Below, piece by piece: positions 23,725 to 30,252 of a DNA stretch of 64,000 nt. The DNA is taken from sequence record OZ035795.1. One strand, 5' to 3'. Made by a program: the position numbers and the translations under genes. The first letter of the stretch is position 1. Each line of letters begins with the position of its first letter. The DNA comes from Krischvirus LF73P4. Under the pieces are notes generated by a model. That model was given only the letters and a program-made list of their open reading frames with translations. It was not told the origin of the DNA and did no database searches.

Positions 23725-24393
23725 ATGCTTCCAGTGGATTTAATGATTGACTTTGAAAGTTTAGGTTATCCGCCCGATGGGGCGGTTATCAATATGGCGG
23801 CAATCGGATTTAAAGAAGATCCGCACAATCCACCTACATTTAAAGAACTGGTCGACAATTCCTTTCTGGTAAAATTTGATATTCCTTCCCAGAAAGGTGT
23901 AAGGGTGTTTGATCATGGTGTGGTTGAATGGTGGAAGAATACCGCCTCAGAAGGTATGAGAAAGCAATTAATCACAAATGGTACGGAAGTATCAACTAAA
24001 GAAGGTTTAGCGCGTTTTAACGCATTCTGTGAAGCCGTAGGGGTAGATCCGGTTAAATCCGTAATGTGGTCACGCGGTAATGCGTTTGATATTCCGTTAC
24101 TAGTTGATATGATCCGCCGTGCACACAATACACGAGAGACGTTCAGCCTTGAACCTGTGCGATTCTGGAATATCCGAGATGTTCGCACCGCCATTGAGCG
24201 TACATTGATGCATCGCGGGATGTGTGAGTGTCCGTTACCAATGGGTACGCTAGATGGTTTTATCGCACATGATGCAATTCATGATTGCGCTCGCGATATT
24301 CTTATGCTAATCTATGCACAACGTTATGCTATGGGTCTGGAAGACCTACCAGAAAATCCAGATCCAAATTCAGTTAAGAAACAAAGGGGATAA
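23725..24393 (+). CDS. dexA: exonuclease A DexA
   Basis: ATG 23725 after GGAGGA; IDFE..G; KFD...QKG.R.F....VEWWKN; FD.P.LVD.IRR; FW..RD.RT; GTLDGF.AHD.IHDCA.DILM..YA.RYAMGLED match recalled T4 DexA. Confidence 0.85.
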   Translation: MLPVDLMIDFESLGYPPDGAVINMAAIGFKEDPHNPPTFKELVDNSFLVKFDIPSQKGVRVFDHGVVEWWKNTASEGMRKQLITNGTEVSTKEGLARFNAFCEAVGVDPVKSVMWSRGNAFDIPLLVDMIRRAHNTRETFSLEPVRFWNIRDVRTAIERTLMHRGMCECPLPMGTLDGFIAHDAIHDCARDILMLIYAQRYAMGLEDLPENPDPNSVKKQRG

Positions 24394-24394
24394 T

Positions 24395-24568
24395 ATGCCA
24401 TTATACGATTATTCTTGTGAAGAACACGGTCAATTTCAGAAAATCCGCAAAATTTCCGAGCGTGAAAAGGCAGAATGCCCTGAATGCGGTAAAGAATGCA
24501 AACAGGGATTGACTGCCCCGCGCGGGATTAATGGCGGGTACTATGATAAAAATGTGCGCGTGTCATGA
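24395..24568 (+). CDS. zinc-ribbon protein (FmdB-like)
   Basis: MPLYDYSCEEHGQF....CPECGK; ATG 24395 after AAAGGGGA, 1 nt after dexA stop. Confidence 0.55.
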   Translation: MPLYDYSCEEHGQFQKIRKISEREKAECPECGKECKQGLTAPRGINGGYYDKNVRVS

Positions 24569-24666
24569 GTCATATACTTGACAATCACTCAATTTTAATA
24601 TGATTGTTGCAGCCGTCTTTGTGGCGGTTGCAGTAAGTTATGGTTATGTTATGAAGAGGTTTAATA

Positions 24667-26490
24667 ATGAGTGAGTTTCGCATTTTATCTGATCGTGAGC
24701 ATGTCCTTAAGCGTGCAGGAATGTATATAGGATCAACAACTTACGAAGAACATCAACGTTTCCTGTTCGGTAAATGGACAAAAATTTCATATGTTCCTGG
24801 ACTGGTGAAAATCATTGATGAGATCATCGACAACTCTGTAGACGAGGCGATTCGCACTAATTTTGAATTTGCCAATGTGATTAGCGTCGATATCCAAAAC
24901 AATATTGTTACGGTAACAGACAACGGTCGCGGTATTCCTCAACATATGGTTACTACCCCAGAGGGCACGCAGATTCCGCAACCTGTAGCCGCATGGACAC
25001 GAACAAAAGCAGGGTCTAACTTTGATGATACCAATCGATTAACGCAAGGGATGAACGGTGTAGGGTCGTCGTTGTCAAATTTCTTTAGCGATTGGTTTAC
25101 TGGTGTGACCTGTGACGGCGAAACAGAAATGACCGTTCAATGTACAAACGGTGCTGAAAATATCACATGGTCATCGAAACCATCAAAATTGAAGGGAACA
25201 AAGGTTACATTTTGCCCAGACTTCGACCACTTCGAAGGTTATATGATGGACAACTCTGTTTTAGATATTGTTCATGATCGTCTGCAATCATTGAGCGTAA
25301 TATTTCCTAAGATCACGTTTAAGTTTAATGGTAAACGTATTGTTAGTAAGTTCAAGGATTATGCTAAACTATACAATGATGATCCGTTTGTCATTGAAGA
25401 TAAAAACTTTTCACTTGCCCTAGTTCCTGCGGTCGAGGGAGAAGGTTTTAAATCAGTATCCTTTGCTAATGGTCTGTTTACCAAAAACGGGGGAACACAC
25501 GTAGACTACGTGACAGATGATCTTTGTGAAGAGATTGTAAAACGAATCAAGAAAGAATATAAGGTTGATGTTACTAAAGCTGCGGTTAAATCTGGATTGA
25601 CCTGTATTCTTATTGTTCGTGAATTGCCTAACCTTCGTTTTGATTCACAGACAAAAGAACGATTGACTAATCCAACTGGTGATATCAAGCGTCATATTGA
25701 TCTTGATTTTAAAAAGCTGGCTAAAGTCATTGCGAAGAAAGAAAACATTATCATGCCTATTATTGCTGTAGTCCTGGCACGCAAAGAGGCAGCAGATAAA
25801 GCGGCAGCGACTAAGGCAGCAAAGGCAGCGAAACGGGCTAAGGTAGCAAAACACGTTAAAGCTAACCTTATTGGAACTGACGCAGAAACTACCCTGTTTT
25901 TGACGGAAGGTGATTCCGCGATCAACTATCTGATCTCTGTACGTGATCAAGATTTACATGGCGGTTTCCCGTTGCGAGGCAAAACTCTTACAACGTGGGA
26001 ACAACCGGAGGCAAAGATCGTTAAGAACGCCGAAATTTTTAACATCATGGCGATCACTGGCTTGCAATTTGGTGTTGATGCATTGGAAGTTATGCAATAC
26101 AAAAATATTGCGATTATGACAGACGCTGATACTGACGGGATCGGGTCTATTAAACCTAGTCTGATCTCTTTCTTTGCTCGTTGGCCTGAATTGTTCGAAG
26201 ATGGACGAATCCGGTTTATCAAAACACCTATTATCATTGCGGAACCAAAGAAAGGTGATGATGTTCGATGGTATTATGACCTAGAAGATTTTGAGAACGA
26301 CCGAGATAATATCAAAGGTTACAACATTCGATATATCAAAGGTTTAGCATCGCTCACAGAATCAGACTATCATCGCGTGATCAACGATCCTGTCATGGAG
26401 ATCATCACGTTACCGGAAAACTATAAAGAGCTATTCGATTTGCTCTATAGTGAAGATTCAGACATGAGGAAGGCATGGATGGCGTCATAA
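24667..26490 (+). CDS. 39: DNA topoisomerase II large subunit gp39 (GyrB-like ATPase), apparently fused 39+60
   Basis: 607 aa; GHKL ATPase motifs (IIDEIIDNSVDEA, TVTDNGRGIP), TOPRIM-like C-terminal part; length exceeds recalled T4 gp39 alone. Confidence 0.85.
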   Translation: MSEFRILSDREHVLKRAGMYIGSTTYEEHQRFLFGKWTKISYVPGLVKIIDEIIDNSVDEAIRTNFEFANVISVDIQNNIVTVTDNGRGIPQHMVTTPEGTQIPQPVAAWTRTKAGSNFDDTNRLTQGMNGVGSSLSNFFSDWFTGVTCDGETEMTVQCTNGAENITWSSKPSKLKGTKVTFCPDFDHFEGYMMDNSVLDIVHDRLQSLSVIFPKITFKFNGKRIVSKFKDYAKLYNDDPFVIEDKNFSLALVPAVEGEGFKSVSFANGLFTKNGGTHVDYVTDDLCEEIVKRIKKEYKVDVTKAAVKSGLTCILIVRELPNLRFDSQTKERLTNPTGDIKRHIDLDFKKLAKVIAKKENIIMPIIAVVLARKEAADKAAATKAAKAAKRAKVAKHVKANLIGTDAETTLFLTEGDSAINYLISVRDQDLHGGFPLRGKTLTTWEQPEAKIVKNAEIFNIMAITGLQFGVDALEVMQYKNIAIMTDADTDGIGSIKPSLISFFARWPELFEDGRIRFIKTPIIIAEPKKGDDVRWYYDLEDFENDRDNIKGYNIRYIKGLASLTESDYHRVINDPVMEIITLPENYKELFDLLYSEDSDMRKAWMAS

Positions 26491-26491
26491 T

Positions 26492-27055
26492 ATGAAAAGT
26501 GCGAAATTTTGGAATACTGAAATTCAAGAGGAATTAAAACGAAGATTTGGACACACGGAAGGTGTTCTATATCACAAAACAAATAGTCCGTCTTTTAATG
26601 GTCTGCCAGAGGGATATTTCTACCAAGTCGGTGATAAAGTAAAAACAAAAAAGTTAAATTACGGTCATTTGGCAATAGATGTTTACAATAAGGTTAAAAA
26701 GAGAACATCTACATATCTTGTACATAGAATTGTCTGGTTTCTTGAATATGGAACACAGGTTAAGGTAATAGACCACATAGACGGGAATCCAGAAAACAAC
26801 AATCCACCAAATTTACGGGAGGCAACACAACAACAAAACATGTACAATAAAAAGAAAATGGACGGGTGCACGAGCATATATAATGGTGTTACTCATCGCA
26901 AAGGATCTAGCAAAAGACCGTGGCAAGCACAAATAAGGATAAACGGATACAGAAAATACATAGGATCGTTTGCTACTCAGGAGGAAGCCGCTAGAGCATA
27001 TGATGAATATGCAAAAATTCATCATGGGGAGTTTGCATCTTTAAATTTTAGTTGA
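26492..27055 (+). CDS. HNH-AP2 homing endonuclease
   Basis: 187 aa; HNH segment HRIVWFLEYG...IDHIDGNPENNNPPNLREATQQQN followed by AP2-like YNGVTHRKGS.RPWQAQIRINGYRKYIGSFATQEEAARAYDEYA; starts 1 nt after gp39 stop. Confidence 0.75.
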   Translation: MKSAKFWNTEIQEELKRRFGHTEGVLYHKTNSPSFNGLPEGYFYQVGDKVKTKKLNYGHLAIDVYNKVKKRTSTYLVHRIVWFLEYGTQVKVIDHIDGNPENNNPPNLREATQQQNMYNKKKMDGCTSIYNGVTHRKGSSKRPWQAQIRINGYRKYIGSFATQEEAARAYDEYAKIHHGEFASLNFS

Positions 27056-27091
27056 CACACAAGGGAGATTCTCTATAATGGGAGTCTCCCT
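27052..27091 (+). promoter_or_regulatory. early promoter TTGACA-N16-TATAAT with AGGGAGA/TCTCCCT stem around the -10
   Basis: Immediately after HNH gene stop. Confidence 0.5.
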
Positions 27092-27113
27092 TTTCTTTTA
27101 TGAGGATTTAACG

Positions 27114-27413
27114 ATGAGCAAAAAGAATAACATGATGATGAGTATGGCAAAGTTCATGGAAGCAGACCTGATCAAAAATACAGTACAGCATGAACGCCAG
27201 CGAGAAGCCGCAGTGATTGCAGAACAAGGTTTTCAGGTTATCCGCAATCCACCTAAAGATACGATTAAATCGAAATACAGAGACGATCTGAAAGACCATG
27301 AAGTACGGGAACTGGTTAATGATCTGCGTGACATTGCCATCAAATATCATGGTTATCAGTGCTTACGAGAACTGATCGCAGAGCGAGTAATGGATGCCCT
27401 GAAAAAAGATTAA
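27114..27413 (+). CDS. hypothetical protein
   Basis: Track ORF 27078..27413; ATG 27078 lies inside the -10 hexamer, ATG 27114 after GAGGA preferred. Confidence 0.45.
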   Translation: MSKKNNMMMSMAKFMEADLIKNTVQHERQREAAVIAEQGFQVIRNPPKDTIKSKYRDDLKDHEVRELVNDLRDIAIKYHGYQCLRELIAERVMDALKKD

Positions 27414-27420
27414 AAATCTG

Positions 27421-27455
27421 TTGACGCTGGATCGGGGATATATCATAATGTCCCC
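27421..27455 (+). promoter_or_regulatory. early promoter TTGACG-N17-CATAAT with GGGGA/TCCCC stem around the -10
   Basis: Hexamers and inverted repeat seen directly. Confidence 0.45.
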
Positions 27456-27479
27456 ATCGAAAACAAAAGGTTGACTTAT

Positions 27480-27674
27480 ATGAAACCGTTTAAGAATGAA
27501 GAAACTCAAAAATTTTGTGAAAAAATTGCAGAAATCTACTTGACAGGGGAAAAGGAAAAAGCTAATATTATGTTCAAAGAGTCGGTTTCTATGATGAAAG
27601 TAGCACGCTGGGAACTGATCGCAATGCAAGACCAAATTCGTTATCTAGTAACAAAGGAGAATCAAAATGCGTAA
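27480..27674 (+). CDS. hypothetical protein
   Basis: Track ORF 27471..27674 (TTG); ATG 27480 after AAAAGG. Confidence 0.4.
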   Translation: MKPFKNEETQKFCEKIAEIYLTGEKEKANIMFKESVSMMKVARWELIAMQDQIRYLVTKENQNA

Positions 27675-27861
27675 CCATTACATCGAACTGGCAAGCCGTA
27701 AAGTTTCAGACCTGAAAGGCGTAATTGCTTACTATGAAGAAGTCCTGAAAAACGAAATTGCGGAGTGGGAACGTAAAGAATACAGCAAGTGCTTAGAGAA
27801 AAGCCGCGCTGAACTGGTTGACGCAGAAGCCCATCTGCAATGGGTGATTGAAAATGTATAA
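27667..27861 (+). CDS. hypothetical protein
   Basis: 64-aa ORF overlapping upstream stop. Confidence 0.4.
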   Translation: MRNHYIELASRKVSDLKGVIAYYEEVLKNEIAEWERKEYSKCLEKSRAELVDAEAHLQWVIENV

Positions 27862-27871
27862 GGAGTAGAAA

Positions 27872-28129
27872 ATGAGTCGAAGTTTTGATTTTCTGATCGC
27901 CAAGTGTCATCGAGAAAAGAAATCGATGGACCTGTTTATGAAATGTTTGAGGTATGAATATGCACACCTTCGTAAACACAAAATTGATCCGCAAGTTTCC
28001 TACGAAAACATCAAGAAATATGCGAAAGAAGTGATTGACAACGATTGCACCGTGACATATAATGCGTTTATTGATTTATGGGCGTGGGATGTAATCTACG
28101 CAGAGATGGACAAAGAAGATTTTAATTAA
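27872..28129 (+). CDS. hypothetical protein
   Basis: 85-aa ORF. Confidence 0.4.
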   Translation: MSRSFDFLIAKCHREKKSMDLFMKCLRYEYAHLRKHKIDPQVSYENIKKYAKEVIDNDCTVTYNAFIDLWAWDVIYAEMDKEDFN

Positions 28130-28143
28130 GTGAGGATTATATT

Positions 28144-30252
28144 ATGAAAATGCATATCGATAATGAAGAAGTATTTGGCAGTGACCTGAGCGGTGCGGTT
28201 GATTTTTCACTGAAAGCAAGTAGCAAGGCTTTTATGGTGCTTTCTAAGAACACTTATCAATATTGTGAGCGTGCTTGCGTCCGTGAGTATTCGTGCAATG
28301 CTACCGACACTCACAAAGAAGCCGGAACCTTAGATCGTCCGTTTGATATTCATTTACCGACTGCAATCGAACCGTATTTTTCTGTGCGTGATTATGGTAC
28401 GGGTATTCCGTCTAAGAAAGAATTAGAACAACTGTTTACGGTTTACTTTGAATCAACAAAAGACCAGACTAATGATTATATCGGATCTTTTGGTTTAGGT
28501 GCGAAGTCTGCTTATAGCTATACTGACACCTTTACAATCGTAAACTACTACAATGGTCGCGCTTATGGCTTTACTGCATTTGTGCAAAACTCTATGCCGA
28601 AAATGGTGCAGATTTTCGACGAACCGACCTATGAAGACAACGGTCTGAAAATCACTATTCCGGTGAAAGAAAAAGACATTCAGACATGGCATCGAGAAGC
28701 ACAATTTGTACTTCGTCATTTTGGGGAACACAAACCTAATATCAATGCAATCGAAATTAATTATTTCCCTAGCTTTGATAATTATTATGTTTGCAATGGG
28801 CGTGATAACGATTCCTATGTAGTATATGCAATCATGGGTAAGATCCAGTATCCGATCCCGTATGAATATGTTCGCGGAACATGGTTAGAAGCTGTAAACC
28901 GCCAGCACCAGACCATTTACATTAATTTTGATTTGGGTGATCTGGACCTGATGCCATCGCGCGAAGAAGTTCACTTGTCAATCGAGACTAAAGCGAACAT
29001 CGAAAAACGTATTGCAGAAATCAATGAAATGATGTTGGAAAAGGTTAAAGAAAAGATCGCCAACATTAAAACAGAGCGTAAACTTGCGCAATTTATGAGC
29101 GAGTATTCATCGACTCAACGCAATATTATTAGCAAGATGGGTAAGATCGGGCAGTGGGATGATCCGGTAGCAATCTATAATAAGTTTGTGAATGCGGGTA
29201 AAGATTCGCCTAGTGACGTAGAAGGTCAGGTGTATACTCTGTATCGTACTCGTCACACAATCAGTAAATTGCGCCCTGCTTTCGTTAGCAGTCAATACAA
29301 CATTACGCATTTTGTATGGATGCATAAAGAAGATATTCTGTGTGTAATTGATGATACCGATAAACCGAAACTGCGTGCACTGACTCTTAACGGCATGGTC
29401 CAGGAATACGGAATCAATAAAAAGGTACTGGTGTTCCGTCAGCGCAACGAAAAACATATGGAGACTTTCGAGTACATCAAACAGTATTATGATGAATCTG
29501 AAATGACCGTGATTAAGGTATCAGAGGCCGATGATCTGCGTGCTAAAGCAGTTAAACCGGAAAAGACCGAGCGTACACAACGTGAAGCGACTCCCAAGCT
29601 GCCTAACGTGTATATCATGGAAAAGATTGGTGACAGTTGGCATAAAACCAGCCATCACATGAAAGCGGCAGAGATTCGCGAGTTATCAGGCTTGCACATG
29701 TTCCGCGTAGGTGATGCATTCGAAAGCCGTAGTCGTAAATCGATCTATAGTGAAAATACATTACACACGGCGCTTGACTACTTCGGGGTAACAAAGTATA
29801 TTATTACTCGAAACGAGACACAAAAATATCTCGTTGACGAACAATTGGAATGTGCGCTAGAATTTGTTCGCGGTAAGCTGGCTGGTCTGGCTAAGAAGGT
29901 TAAGACCAATCATCTGGGGTATGGCGAATATCTGGGTGTGATCACTATGTTGTTTCATGACGATGAACTAGAACGCTGTGTTCCAGAATTTATTGACAGA
30001 CTGTACGGTCGTCATTATAATAAAGAGGTTTCCAAGTTACTCCTTCGTACTCGTTGGATTATGGACGAAGAAACTAAAAAGATCTGTGATGAAAAATTCA
30101 CGGCAGCAAACGAACGAATTAAAGCAGTTTGTGCGAAGTTTAAAGAGAATAGCCCGTTACTGTATGATATTGTAGATAACTGGTATCGTATTCTGCATAA
30201 CGACAAACGCGCACAAGACTTTATGAAACTGGTTAAGAATGTTAAATTTTAA
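28144..30252 (+). CDS. rIIA: rIIA protein (histidine-kinase-like ATPase fold)
   Basis: 702 aa; NDYIGSFGLGAKSAYSYTDTFTIVNYY and the Bergerat-fold segment match recalled T4 rIIA; followed by rIIB. Confidence 0.85.
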   Translation: MKMHIDNEEVFGSDLSGAVDFSLKASSKAFMVLSKNTYQYCERACVREYSCNATDTHKEAGTLDRPFDIHLPTAIEPYFSVRDYGTGIPSKKELEQLFTVYFESTKDQTNDYIGSFGLGAKSAYSYTDTFTIVNYYNGRAYGFTAFVQNSMPKMVQIFDEPTYEDNGLKITIPVKEKDIQTWHREAQFVLRHFGEHKPNINAIEINYFPSFDNYYVCNGRDNDSYVVYAIMGKIQYPIPYEYVRGTWLEAVNRQHQTIYINFDLGDLDLMPSREEVHLSIETKANIEKRIAEINEMMLEKVKEKIANIKTERKLAQFMSEYSSTQRNIISKMGKIGQWDDPVAIYNKFVNAGKDSPSDVEGQVYTLYRTRHTISKLRPAFVSSQYNITHFVWMHKEDILCVIDDTDKPKLRALTLNGMVQEYGINKKVLVFRQRNEKHMETFEYIKQYYDESEMTVIKVSEADDLRAKAVKPEKTERTQREATPKLPNVYIMEKIGDSWHKTSHHMKAAEIRELSGLHMFRVGDAFESRSRKSIYSENTLHTALDYFGVTKYIITRNETQKYLVDEQLECALEFVRGKLAGLAKKVKTNHLGYGEYLGVITMLFHDDELERCVPEFIDRLYGRHYNKEVSKLLLRTRWIMDEETKKICDEKFTAANERIKAVCAKFKENSPLLYDIVDNWYRILHNDKRAQDFMKLVKNVKF

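Follow-up and report, generated by a model that had tools for sequence, protein, structure and literature searches.

A probably mobile HNH-AP2 endonuclease gene directly behind topoisomerase gene 39 in some Krischviruses

An open reading frame that abuts the topoisomerase gene 39 of Krischvirus LF73P4 appears to be an active or recently active, free-standing homing endonuclease gene of the HNH-AP2 class, spreading by intronless homing. A probability of about 0.8 is assigned to this reading, which was built from sequence comparison and structure prediction. Three alternatives were weighed, a relic that no longer cuts, an ancestral gene lost many times over, and a gene domesticated for another function, and they are improbable even when combined. 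The window, that is the whole stretch of DNA analysed, comprises 64,000 nucleotides of record OZ035795.1. The genes at the centre of the analysis are the following.

26492..27055, + strand: HNH-AP2 endonuclease gene, free-standing, ATG start, 187 aa plus TGA
24667..26490, + strand: gene 39, large subunit of topoisomerase II in its unsplit form (39+60 fused), 607 aa, adjoining the endonuclease ORF
27114..27413, + strand: first downstream backbone gene, homologue of RB49p005, 99 aa, matching PHROG_15065 over its full length (E 4e-67)

The gene 39 locus

The gene order around the ORF in this Krischvirus, an RB49/JSE/Phi1-like T4-type coliphage, is dexA, 39.2, 39, four small ORFs and rIIA. By megablast the 64-kb window matches several Krischvirus records at 98-99% identity and is identical to none of them. 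Gene 39 matches PHROG_543 (topoisomerase II large subunit) from end to end with an E value of 1e-252, and the Pfam domains HATPase_c, DNA_gyraseB, Toprim and TOPRIM_C all lie within one uninterrupted ORF of 607 aa. It is therefore the unsplit "39+60" form, in agreement with the first-pass annotation, which had described an uninterrupted fusion with the endonuclease downstream. The same gene is annotated 39 or 60+39 in the records of RB49, JSE and Phi1.

The TAA stop of gene 39 occupies 26488-26490 and is followed by a single T at 26491 and by the ATG of the ORF at 26492, exactly the 1-nt spacing first reported. The ORF is free-standing, a gene of its own between the gene 39 stop and a promoter of the phage backbone. 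A tblastn search found no paralogue within the window, and NCBIfam has no model for the 187-aa protein. An intron- or intein-encoded endonuclease was also considered. It was ruled out because no Rfam intron or structured RNA matched within 24000-28500 at E values up to 1, because Hint domains are absent, and because the ORF lies outside gene 39.

Occupied and empty sites

A 3.6-kb query across the locus retrieved 58 Krischvirus records, and the ORF query matched eight of these at 98.9-99.5% identity. The eight records represent seven phages, JSE, kvi, pEJ01, W115, G37-3, G5211 and FL15, since JSE is present twice. A 201-nt query taken from the empty site of RB49 matched 50 records in one continuous piece and the eight carriers in two pieces, 558 bp apart. 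Comparison of the 39/60 locus across relatives, the check proposed at first pass, thus gives a precise empty site and a gene that is absent from 50 of the 58 records and is not universal.

The borders of the insertion can be placed to the nucleotide. Non-carriers read GAAGAT followed by 33 nt including the TAA, then CAC (or AAACAC or AACAC), then TTGACA. Carriers read TCAGACATGAGGAAGGCATGGATGGCGTCATAA-T-ATG...AGT after GAAGAT, followed by the same TTGACA, and the borders are identical in all eight. Strictly defined, the inserted or replaced DNA spans 26458-27051, with 594 bp standing in place of 36 bp, so that 558 bp are gained overall. The right border coincides exactly with the -35 hexamer of the backbone promoter, and this hexamer supplies the TGA stop of the endonuclease (27053-27055). 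The RB49p005 homologue downstream is found in carriers and non-carriers and lies outside the mobile element. The left end of the segment falls within gene 39.

26458..26490, + strand: recoded block linked to the endonuclease, comprising the final 10 sense codons of gene 39 and the stop

Scanning IMG/VR for exact matches to either junction type yielded no carrier and two non-carrier contigs, Krischviruses being too few there to add anything.

Presence and absence alone give no direction, and the same polymorphism would be seen if the ORF had been present in the Krischvirus ancestor and deleted in most lineages. However, in all 50 non-carriers the gene 39 stop is followed by 3-5 nt and then by TTGACA, a uniformity that independent deletions would not reproduce, and no ragged deletion scars were seen among them. 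In addition, the ORF is several times less diverse than the backbone and atypical in composition, and the carriers differ in their flanking haplotypes, as detailed below. Repeated loss is thus a very unlikely explanation of the pattern.

Domain structure and active site

From sequence profiles and a structure model, the 187-aa protein is predicted to begin with a sheet like that of I-HmuI, to continue with an HNH_3 core and to end in an AP2 domain.

26516..26719, + strand: N-terminal helix and beta-sheet region, aa 9-76, aligning with the N-terminal DNA-binding sheet of I-HmuI
26714..26848, + strand: HNH_3 (beta-beta-alpha-metal) nuclease core, aa 75-119
26873..27034, + strand: AP2-type DNA-binding domain, aa 128-181, three-stranded sheet plus helix

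The motif IDHIDGNPENNNPPNL corresponds to aa 93-108 of the protein and falls within the Pfam HNH_3 match at aa 75-118, which scores 51.8 bits (E 6.3e-14), above the cut-off of 24.8. PHROG_99, "HNH endonuclease", matches aa 8-186 with an E value of 2.4e-48. The Pfam AP2 match covers aa 130-175 (E 2.1e-5) and its 25.2 bits lie below the gathering score of 33.3. Searches of PDB sequences with phmmer matched the plant AP2/ERF proteins WRI1 (9e-6), ERF096 (3e-5) and ERF1 (3e-4), as well as I-HmuI (1U3E, E 4.8e-5), with aa 46-122 of the query on aa 26-102 of I-HmuI. Among relatives of the 187-aa protein, PF00847 (AP2) is a precomputed assignment, and Pfam NUMOD4, present in some of them, provides a basis for the N-terminal region.

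An AlphaFold2 model built with the homologue alignment replaced a single-sequence run (pLDDT 42) and reached a pLDDT of 95.2 and a pTM of 0.86. Its N-terminal region exceeds a pLDDT of 90 and contains strands at 19-28 and 60-76. The top Foldseek match in the PDB was again I-HmuI 1U3E (E 3e-4, probability 1.0). AP2 structures superpose on aa ~128-181 of the model, 1GCC with an rmsd of 1.6 Å over 61 columns (TM 0.78, normalised to the target), and the AP2 domain of TEM1 (7ET5) superposes on the C-terminal region with an rmsd of 1.4 Å. The AP2 assignment, although below the Pfam gathering score, is supported by this predicted structure. The combination of an HNH nuclease with an AP2 domain, already recognised at first pass, is borne out by Pfam HNH_3, PHROG_99, phmmer and the model superpositions.

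Residues D94, H95, N107 and N116 align with D74, H75, N87 and N96 of I-HmuI. In the I-HmuI structure, D74 and N96 are reportedly the metal-binding residues and H75 is said to act as the general base. Across 45 aligned homologues, D94, N107 and N119 are present in every sequence, H95 in 44 and N116 in 40. Thirteen IMG/VR relatives, all distant (<=57% identity, partial lengths) and used for residue conservation only, keep the same active-site residues as the 187-aa protein. By alignment to I-HmuI the active site thus appears complete, and the catalytic HNH residues, whose loss would have told against the first-pass identification, are intact. The eight copies of the ORF are all full-length, with no frameshift or stop; they differ at seven sites (four synonymous, three nonsynonymous), none of them catalytic and too few to judge selection.

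Transcription and translation

Two regulatory elements lie at the 3' end of the ORF.

27052..27079, + strand: sigma-70-type early promoter, TTGACA-16-TATAAT, 12/12 match, serving the downstream ORFs
27061..27100, + strand: intrinsic terminator, 13-bp stem (27061-27092) plus T-run, nested in the promoter

The promoter overlaps the stop of the ORF in carriers, directly follows gene 39 in endonuclease-minus phages and is annotated as a promoter in GEC-3S. The terminator hairpin folds with -24.4 kcal/mol (z -4.1) and is annotated in G5211, G2494, GEC-3S and Makalu. It ends the gene 39 transcript or, in carriers, the transcript of gene 39 plus the endonuclease. Both elements are pre-existing backbone and not a contribution of the element. 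The first-pass annotation had the ORF followed immediately by its own promoter; the promoter is there, at 27052-27079, but it is not owned by the element, being part of the backbone in endonuclease-minus phages as well.

No sigma-70-like site upstream of the ORF exceeds a score of 9/12, the late TATAAATA motif is absent there, and gene 39 and the ORF are not separated by a terminator. The ORF is therefore a promoter-less cassette. A GGAUGG some 9 nt before the start codon is its weak ribosome-binding signal, and a good Shine-Dalgarno sequence is lacking. Sequestration of the ribosome-binding site is unsupported, as the RNA around the start codon is unstructured (z 0.29). The ORF probably shares the transcript of gene 39 and relies on termination-reinitiation for its translation, as is described for many free-standing T4 homing endonuclease genes (HEGs), which typically lack a promoter and abut or overlap the upstream gene (PMC2988022).

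The position of the ORF raises the question of a domesticated function. AP2 is a bona fide sequence-specific DNA binder and the ORF ends inside a promoter, as might be expected of an AP2-based regulator at the adjacent promoter and terminator; yet no sign of regulation was seen, these elements being identical and functional-looking in the 50 phages that are without the protein. Alternatively, the protein might exclude competing Krischviruses by cutting their DNA, and partial exclusion of T2 by T4 through HEGs is documented (PMC2993671). Such exclusion would be an added benefit of homing and not a true rival to it, since mechanistically the two are the same act. With the gene present in only about one in seven phages, a needed function is not suggested, and domestication of either kind is highly improbable.

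Evidence of recent spread

Nucleotide diversity (pi) among the eight carriers is 0.0043 in the ORF versus 0.017-0.025 in the flanking genes, 4-6 times lower in the ORF. Phages G37-3 and G5211 are about 25% divergent from the window over the first ~650 nt of gene 39, yet their ORF is 99.3% identical. W115 and FL15 have Phi1/ECD7-type SNPs at 26336-26390, about 70 bp to the left of the cassette, and the other carriers have RB49/kaaroe-type flanks. The best matches to the window over 25 kb of backbone are the non-carriers KMB43 and kaaroe. The GC content of the ORF is 36.0% versus 40.6% for the window. The low diversity of the ORF, its AT-richness, the differing left-flank haplotypes and the linked recoded tail of gene 39 fit recent horizontal spread by intronless homing, and the endonuclease gene is, on these comparisons, probably mobile.

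Spread could also be passive, with the gene a relic of a past invasion that has ceased to cut and moves by ordinary homologous recombination between co-infecting Krischviruses. Such a fate would not be unusual, as defective HEGs are common in the T4 family; T4 mobA is annotated as one, and pseudogenised copies of MobA have been described (bioRxiv 10.1101/2022.08.31.505936); the weak translation signals of the ORF, with no structured or strong ribosome-binding site, also point this way. A relic is nevertheless hard to reconcile with eight full-length copies out of eight and with the presence of every residue that matches the I-HmuI active site. That the ORF varies so little while its flanks vary widely speaks for active spread in the recent past, and the tight linkage of the recoded block is difficult to explain without nuclease pressure. 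An inactive gene is thus considered unlikely.

In G5211 an Endonuclease_7-type ORF lies directly before the gene 39 start codon, linked to the 25%-divergent 5' segment.

The recoded end of gene 39

The last residues of gp39 are SDMRKAWMAS* in carriers versus ADQRKIWMQS* in the RB49-type allele. The underlying DNA differs at 13 of the 33 nt, including synonymous changes in Asp, Arg and Lys codons. The carrier allele is identical in all eight carriers and was never found without the ORF among the 15 non-carrier sequences in which the tail was read. The same 30 nt are hypervariable in non-carriers, with at least five alleles (RB49/Phi1 type; ECD7/FL20/FL37/Whisky type; JEP8; Makalu; SSG23), and invariant nucleotides directly adjoin the hypervariable block at both ends. 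Binned by 30 nt across ten sequences, pi is 0.176 at the recoded block versus about 0.03 nearby, a contrast inflated by the choice of three of the ten for low identity around the site, which leaves the localisation within the 201 nt unaffected. No donor of the recoded tail was matched among the sampled alleles. The JEP8 and ECD7-type tails share parts of the carrier recoded block.

We infer that the recoded block is the left end of the mobile cassette, a self-immunity version of the target site, or both. Gene 39 is the probable target gene of the endonuclease. The likeliest arrangement, as read from the alleles, is that the site recognised or cleaved by the enzyme overlaps the 3' end of gene 39 and that the carrier allele, and perhaps some of the non-carrier alleles, are resistant. 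For the narrower proposal that the target is the recoded tail itself, the odds are about even. The cut sites of free-standing HEGs can be tens to hundreds of bp away from the insertion, and for this reason recognition may take place outside the recoded block. Part of the hypervariability might also reflect weak constraint on the C-terminal tail of gp39.

The recoded block and the hypervariable tail provide candidate target and resistance alleles. A more far-reaching interpretation, tentative and on balance doubtful, takes the final 10 codons of gene 39 for a recognition site in an ongoing arms race among wild Krischviruses, in which the non-carrier alleles, with their synonymous recoding, would be cleavage-resistance variants and the carrier allele would be immune, and takes gene 39 for a multi-site HEG hotspot. 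If this were true, the hotspot would be occupied by MobA in the middle of the gene (T4), by an Endonuclease_7-type gene before the start (G5211) and by an HNH-AP2 gene after the stop, and the Krischviruses would offer a tractable natural system for the co-evolution of homing endonucleases and their targets.

Proposed mechanism of homing

The preferred reading, intronless homing by an active or recently active enzyme, can be set out as a sequence of steps. Transcription would run from gene 39 through the promoter-less cassette and stop at the backbone terminator. Termination-reinitiation would give a low level of translation, with a single nucleotide between TAA and ATG and a good Shine-Dalgarno sequence lacking. 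In a cell infected by both a carrier and a non-carrier, the enzyme would bind the non-carrier allele at or near the 3' end of gene 39 or the intergenic junction, through its AP2 domain and N-terminal sheet, and would then nick or cut it. Nicking is the activity of I-HmuI, MobA and MobE. The cassette would be copied from the carrier genome by T4-type recombination-dependent repair, with co-conversion of adjacent markers. The carrier allele would be shielded from its own enzyme by the recoded block and by the physically disrupted junction.

To our knowledge, AP2-guided HNH enzymes are a class with almost no biochemistry. Homing by such an enzyme is directly testable in this system, since cultured carriers (JSE, kvi, W115) and non-carriers (RB49, Phi1, kaaroe) exist.

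Comparison with T4 MobA and other homing systems

In T4 the order of the region is 39 - mobA - 60.1 - 60 - rIIA.1 - rIIA. MobA elements are about 1.1 kb long and encode a Mob-type HNH protein of 269-279 aa; they insert at aa 466-491 of Topo2L, split the gene, and add C- and N-terminal extensions and a 50-nt bypass (bioRxiv 10.1101/2022.08.31.505936). The equivalent position in the window, ~26060-26110, is uninterrupted and lies about 400 bp upstream of the present insertion. Like MobA, the ORF described here is an HNH-superfamily HEG that parasitises the large-subunit gene of a T4-type topoisomerase II; it is also promoter-less and probably coupled to the upstream ORF, as is described for MobA (PMC2988022). 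Unlike the 269-279-aa MobA with its "HH...N...H" motif, the 187-aa window protein combines HNH_3 with AP2. Furthermore, MobA splits its gene, whereas gene 39 of the window is intact and the insert follows the stop, after codon 607.

Kinship with T4 MobA was ruled out, as BLASTP against the T4 mobA product gave an E value of 22 and both the insertion site and the gene structure differ. By these comparisons, the ORF is an invasion independent of mobA, by another nuclease subfamily at another site of the same gene. Independence had been raised as a possibility at first pass, and the dissimilarity to MobA together with the unsplit gene 39 upholds it. Two related points need amendment. The two elements were said to share a hotspot, which is true only at the level of the gene, as the ORF follows codon 607 and lies some 400 bp downstream of the MobA position at aa 466-491. 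The T4 interval between 39 and 60 was taken as the homologous locus, but the T4 position homologous to the insertion is after gene 60. The ORF is thus a further, independent example of a T4-type topoisomerase gene with a mobile nuclease attached.

I-HmuI (1U3E), the HNH nicking endonuclease of the Bacillus phage SPO1, resembles the window protein in its N-terminal sheet and HNH_3 core. It differs in being intron-encoded and in having a helical linker and a helix-turn-helix C-terminal domain, whereas the window gene is free-standing and its product ends in a predicted AP2 domain. The closest parallel in mode of spread is the intronless homing of T4 SegF, SegG and MobE, which are free-standing HEGs beside conserved genes, with carrier alleles that differ at the target (PMC2988022, PMC2993671). 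These enzymes cleave the HEG-less allele and spread with co-conversion of flanking markers (PMC2988022, PMC2993671). In contrast to the window protein, the Seg enzymes are of the GIY-YIG type and MobE is a Mob-type HNH enzyme, and homing is experimentally shown for them and deduced from sequence here. The free-standing HNH-AP2 HEGs of T4-related phages share HNH_3 plus a C-terminal AP2 domain and the same host group with the window gene, with no difference in kind.

Full-length relatives of the endonuclease, at 46-51% identity, are free-standing genes in contigs of T4-like phages. The relative in Slopekvirus KLB3 lies directly after gene 46 with an 11-nt overlap, and others are found between rpbA and gene 45, next to gene 2, and before dsbA. 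One relative follows an ORF that, from its sequence, looks like the primase gp61. Three relatives are thus located directly behind identifiable replication or transcription genes (gene 46, rpbA and the gp61-like ORF). Among the relatives' contigs examined, none has a gp39-like gene beside a full-length relative. Free-standing relatives at such differing loci imply a subfamily that hops between loci.

Earlier descriptions and annotation

The 187-aa protein of the window is 100% identical to EpJSE_00005 in the RefSeq record of JSE (NC_012740), and a tabulation from 2010 already lists HNH-AP2 HEGs for RB49 and JSE (PMC2993671); the element is therefore not new. Table 5 of Petrov et al. 2010 counts one putative HNH-AP2 HEG in RB49, two in JSE, three in RB43, six in RB16 and one in KP15 (PMC2993671). 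Two tblastn matches to the window protein in JSE agree with the published count of two. The class is credited to Magnani et al. 2004 (Plant Cell 16:2265) as its first description, in the form in which that work is cited in PMC5029118. In the literature searched, which did not include Denou et al. 2009 (the JSE genome) or Magnani et al. 2004, no description was found of the site after the gene 39 stop, of the linked recoded block, or of the frequency of the element (7 of ~50 phages).

The finding has little import beyond annotation, where it permits the records now reading "hypothetical protein" to be confidently labelled HNH-AP2 homing endonuclease. In GenBank the ORF is labelled "HNH endonuclease" in W115 and G5211, "homing endonuclease" in FL15, and "hypothetical protein" in JSE, kvi, pEJ01 and G37-3.

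A second nuclease gene and a divergent segment at the 5' end of gene 39

Phage G5211 (MK327947.1) carries an additional free-standing nuclease ORF of 242 aa with a GTG start, at positions 1572-2300 of its retrieved sequence (L003, which is numbered differently from the window). The ORF product matches the Pfam family Endonuclease_7 with an E value of 5.6e-16 and the ORF has a GC content of 36.9%. It is an insertion directly 5' of the gene 39 ATG, the equivalent point in the window being just upstream of 24667, and thus gene 39 of G5211 has mobile-nuclease genes on either side. The true ATG of gene 39 in this phage is at L003:2308; the record places it 53 nt downstream of that point.

G5211 and G37-3 have in common a version of the 5' third of gene 39 (its initial ~650 nt; window 24700-25300) that is ~25% divergent. 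The remainder of the gene is 97-99% identical in both phages. The 5' segment is a sharp mosaic patch, and in G37-3 it occurs without the Endonuclease_7 ORF. It may be a co-conversion tract that this second nuclease gene left behind.

The gene 39 tail and the promoter/terminator element

Among the phages without the HNH-AP2 endonuclease gene, the final ten codons of gene 39 (window 26458-26490) form a hypervariable mini-block with at least five alleles, in which an Arg codon varies between CGC, CGA, CGT and AGA. Invariant sequence borders the block on the left and right.

A perfect consensus promoter, TTGACA-16-TATAAT, is found at the 3' end of the endonuclease gene. A strong intrinsic terminator hairpin is nested between and across its hexamers, and this dual element (window 27052-27100) is kept in all the Krischviruses compared. 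The first downstream ORF was called at 27078 with 111 aa, a start that falls inside the -10 region of the promoter. Its true start is most likely 27114, giving 99 aa; this shorter version matches PHROG_15065 over its full length.

Other loci from gene 39 to rIIA

One further ORF in this interval is

27471-27674, 67 aa, homologue of RB49p004

A ~180-bp stretch at window 27463-27650 is absent from JSE and FL15, so that this ORF is missing there, and is present in all other phages compared. The gene 39-rIIA interval thereby holds another small polymorphism of the presence/absence kind.

The rIIA product (window 28144-30252) has a weak match to Pfam HATPase_c_3 (E 0.0033, residues 77-140). The N-terminus of RIIA proteins is known to be distantly GHKL-ATPase-like; the match agrees with this and is unrelated to the endonuclease finding.
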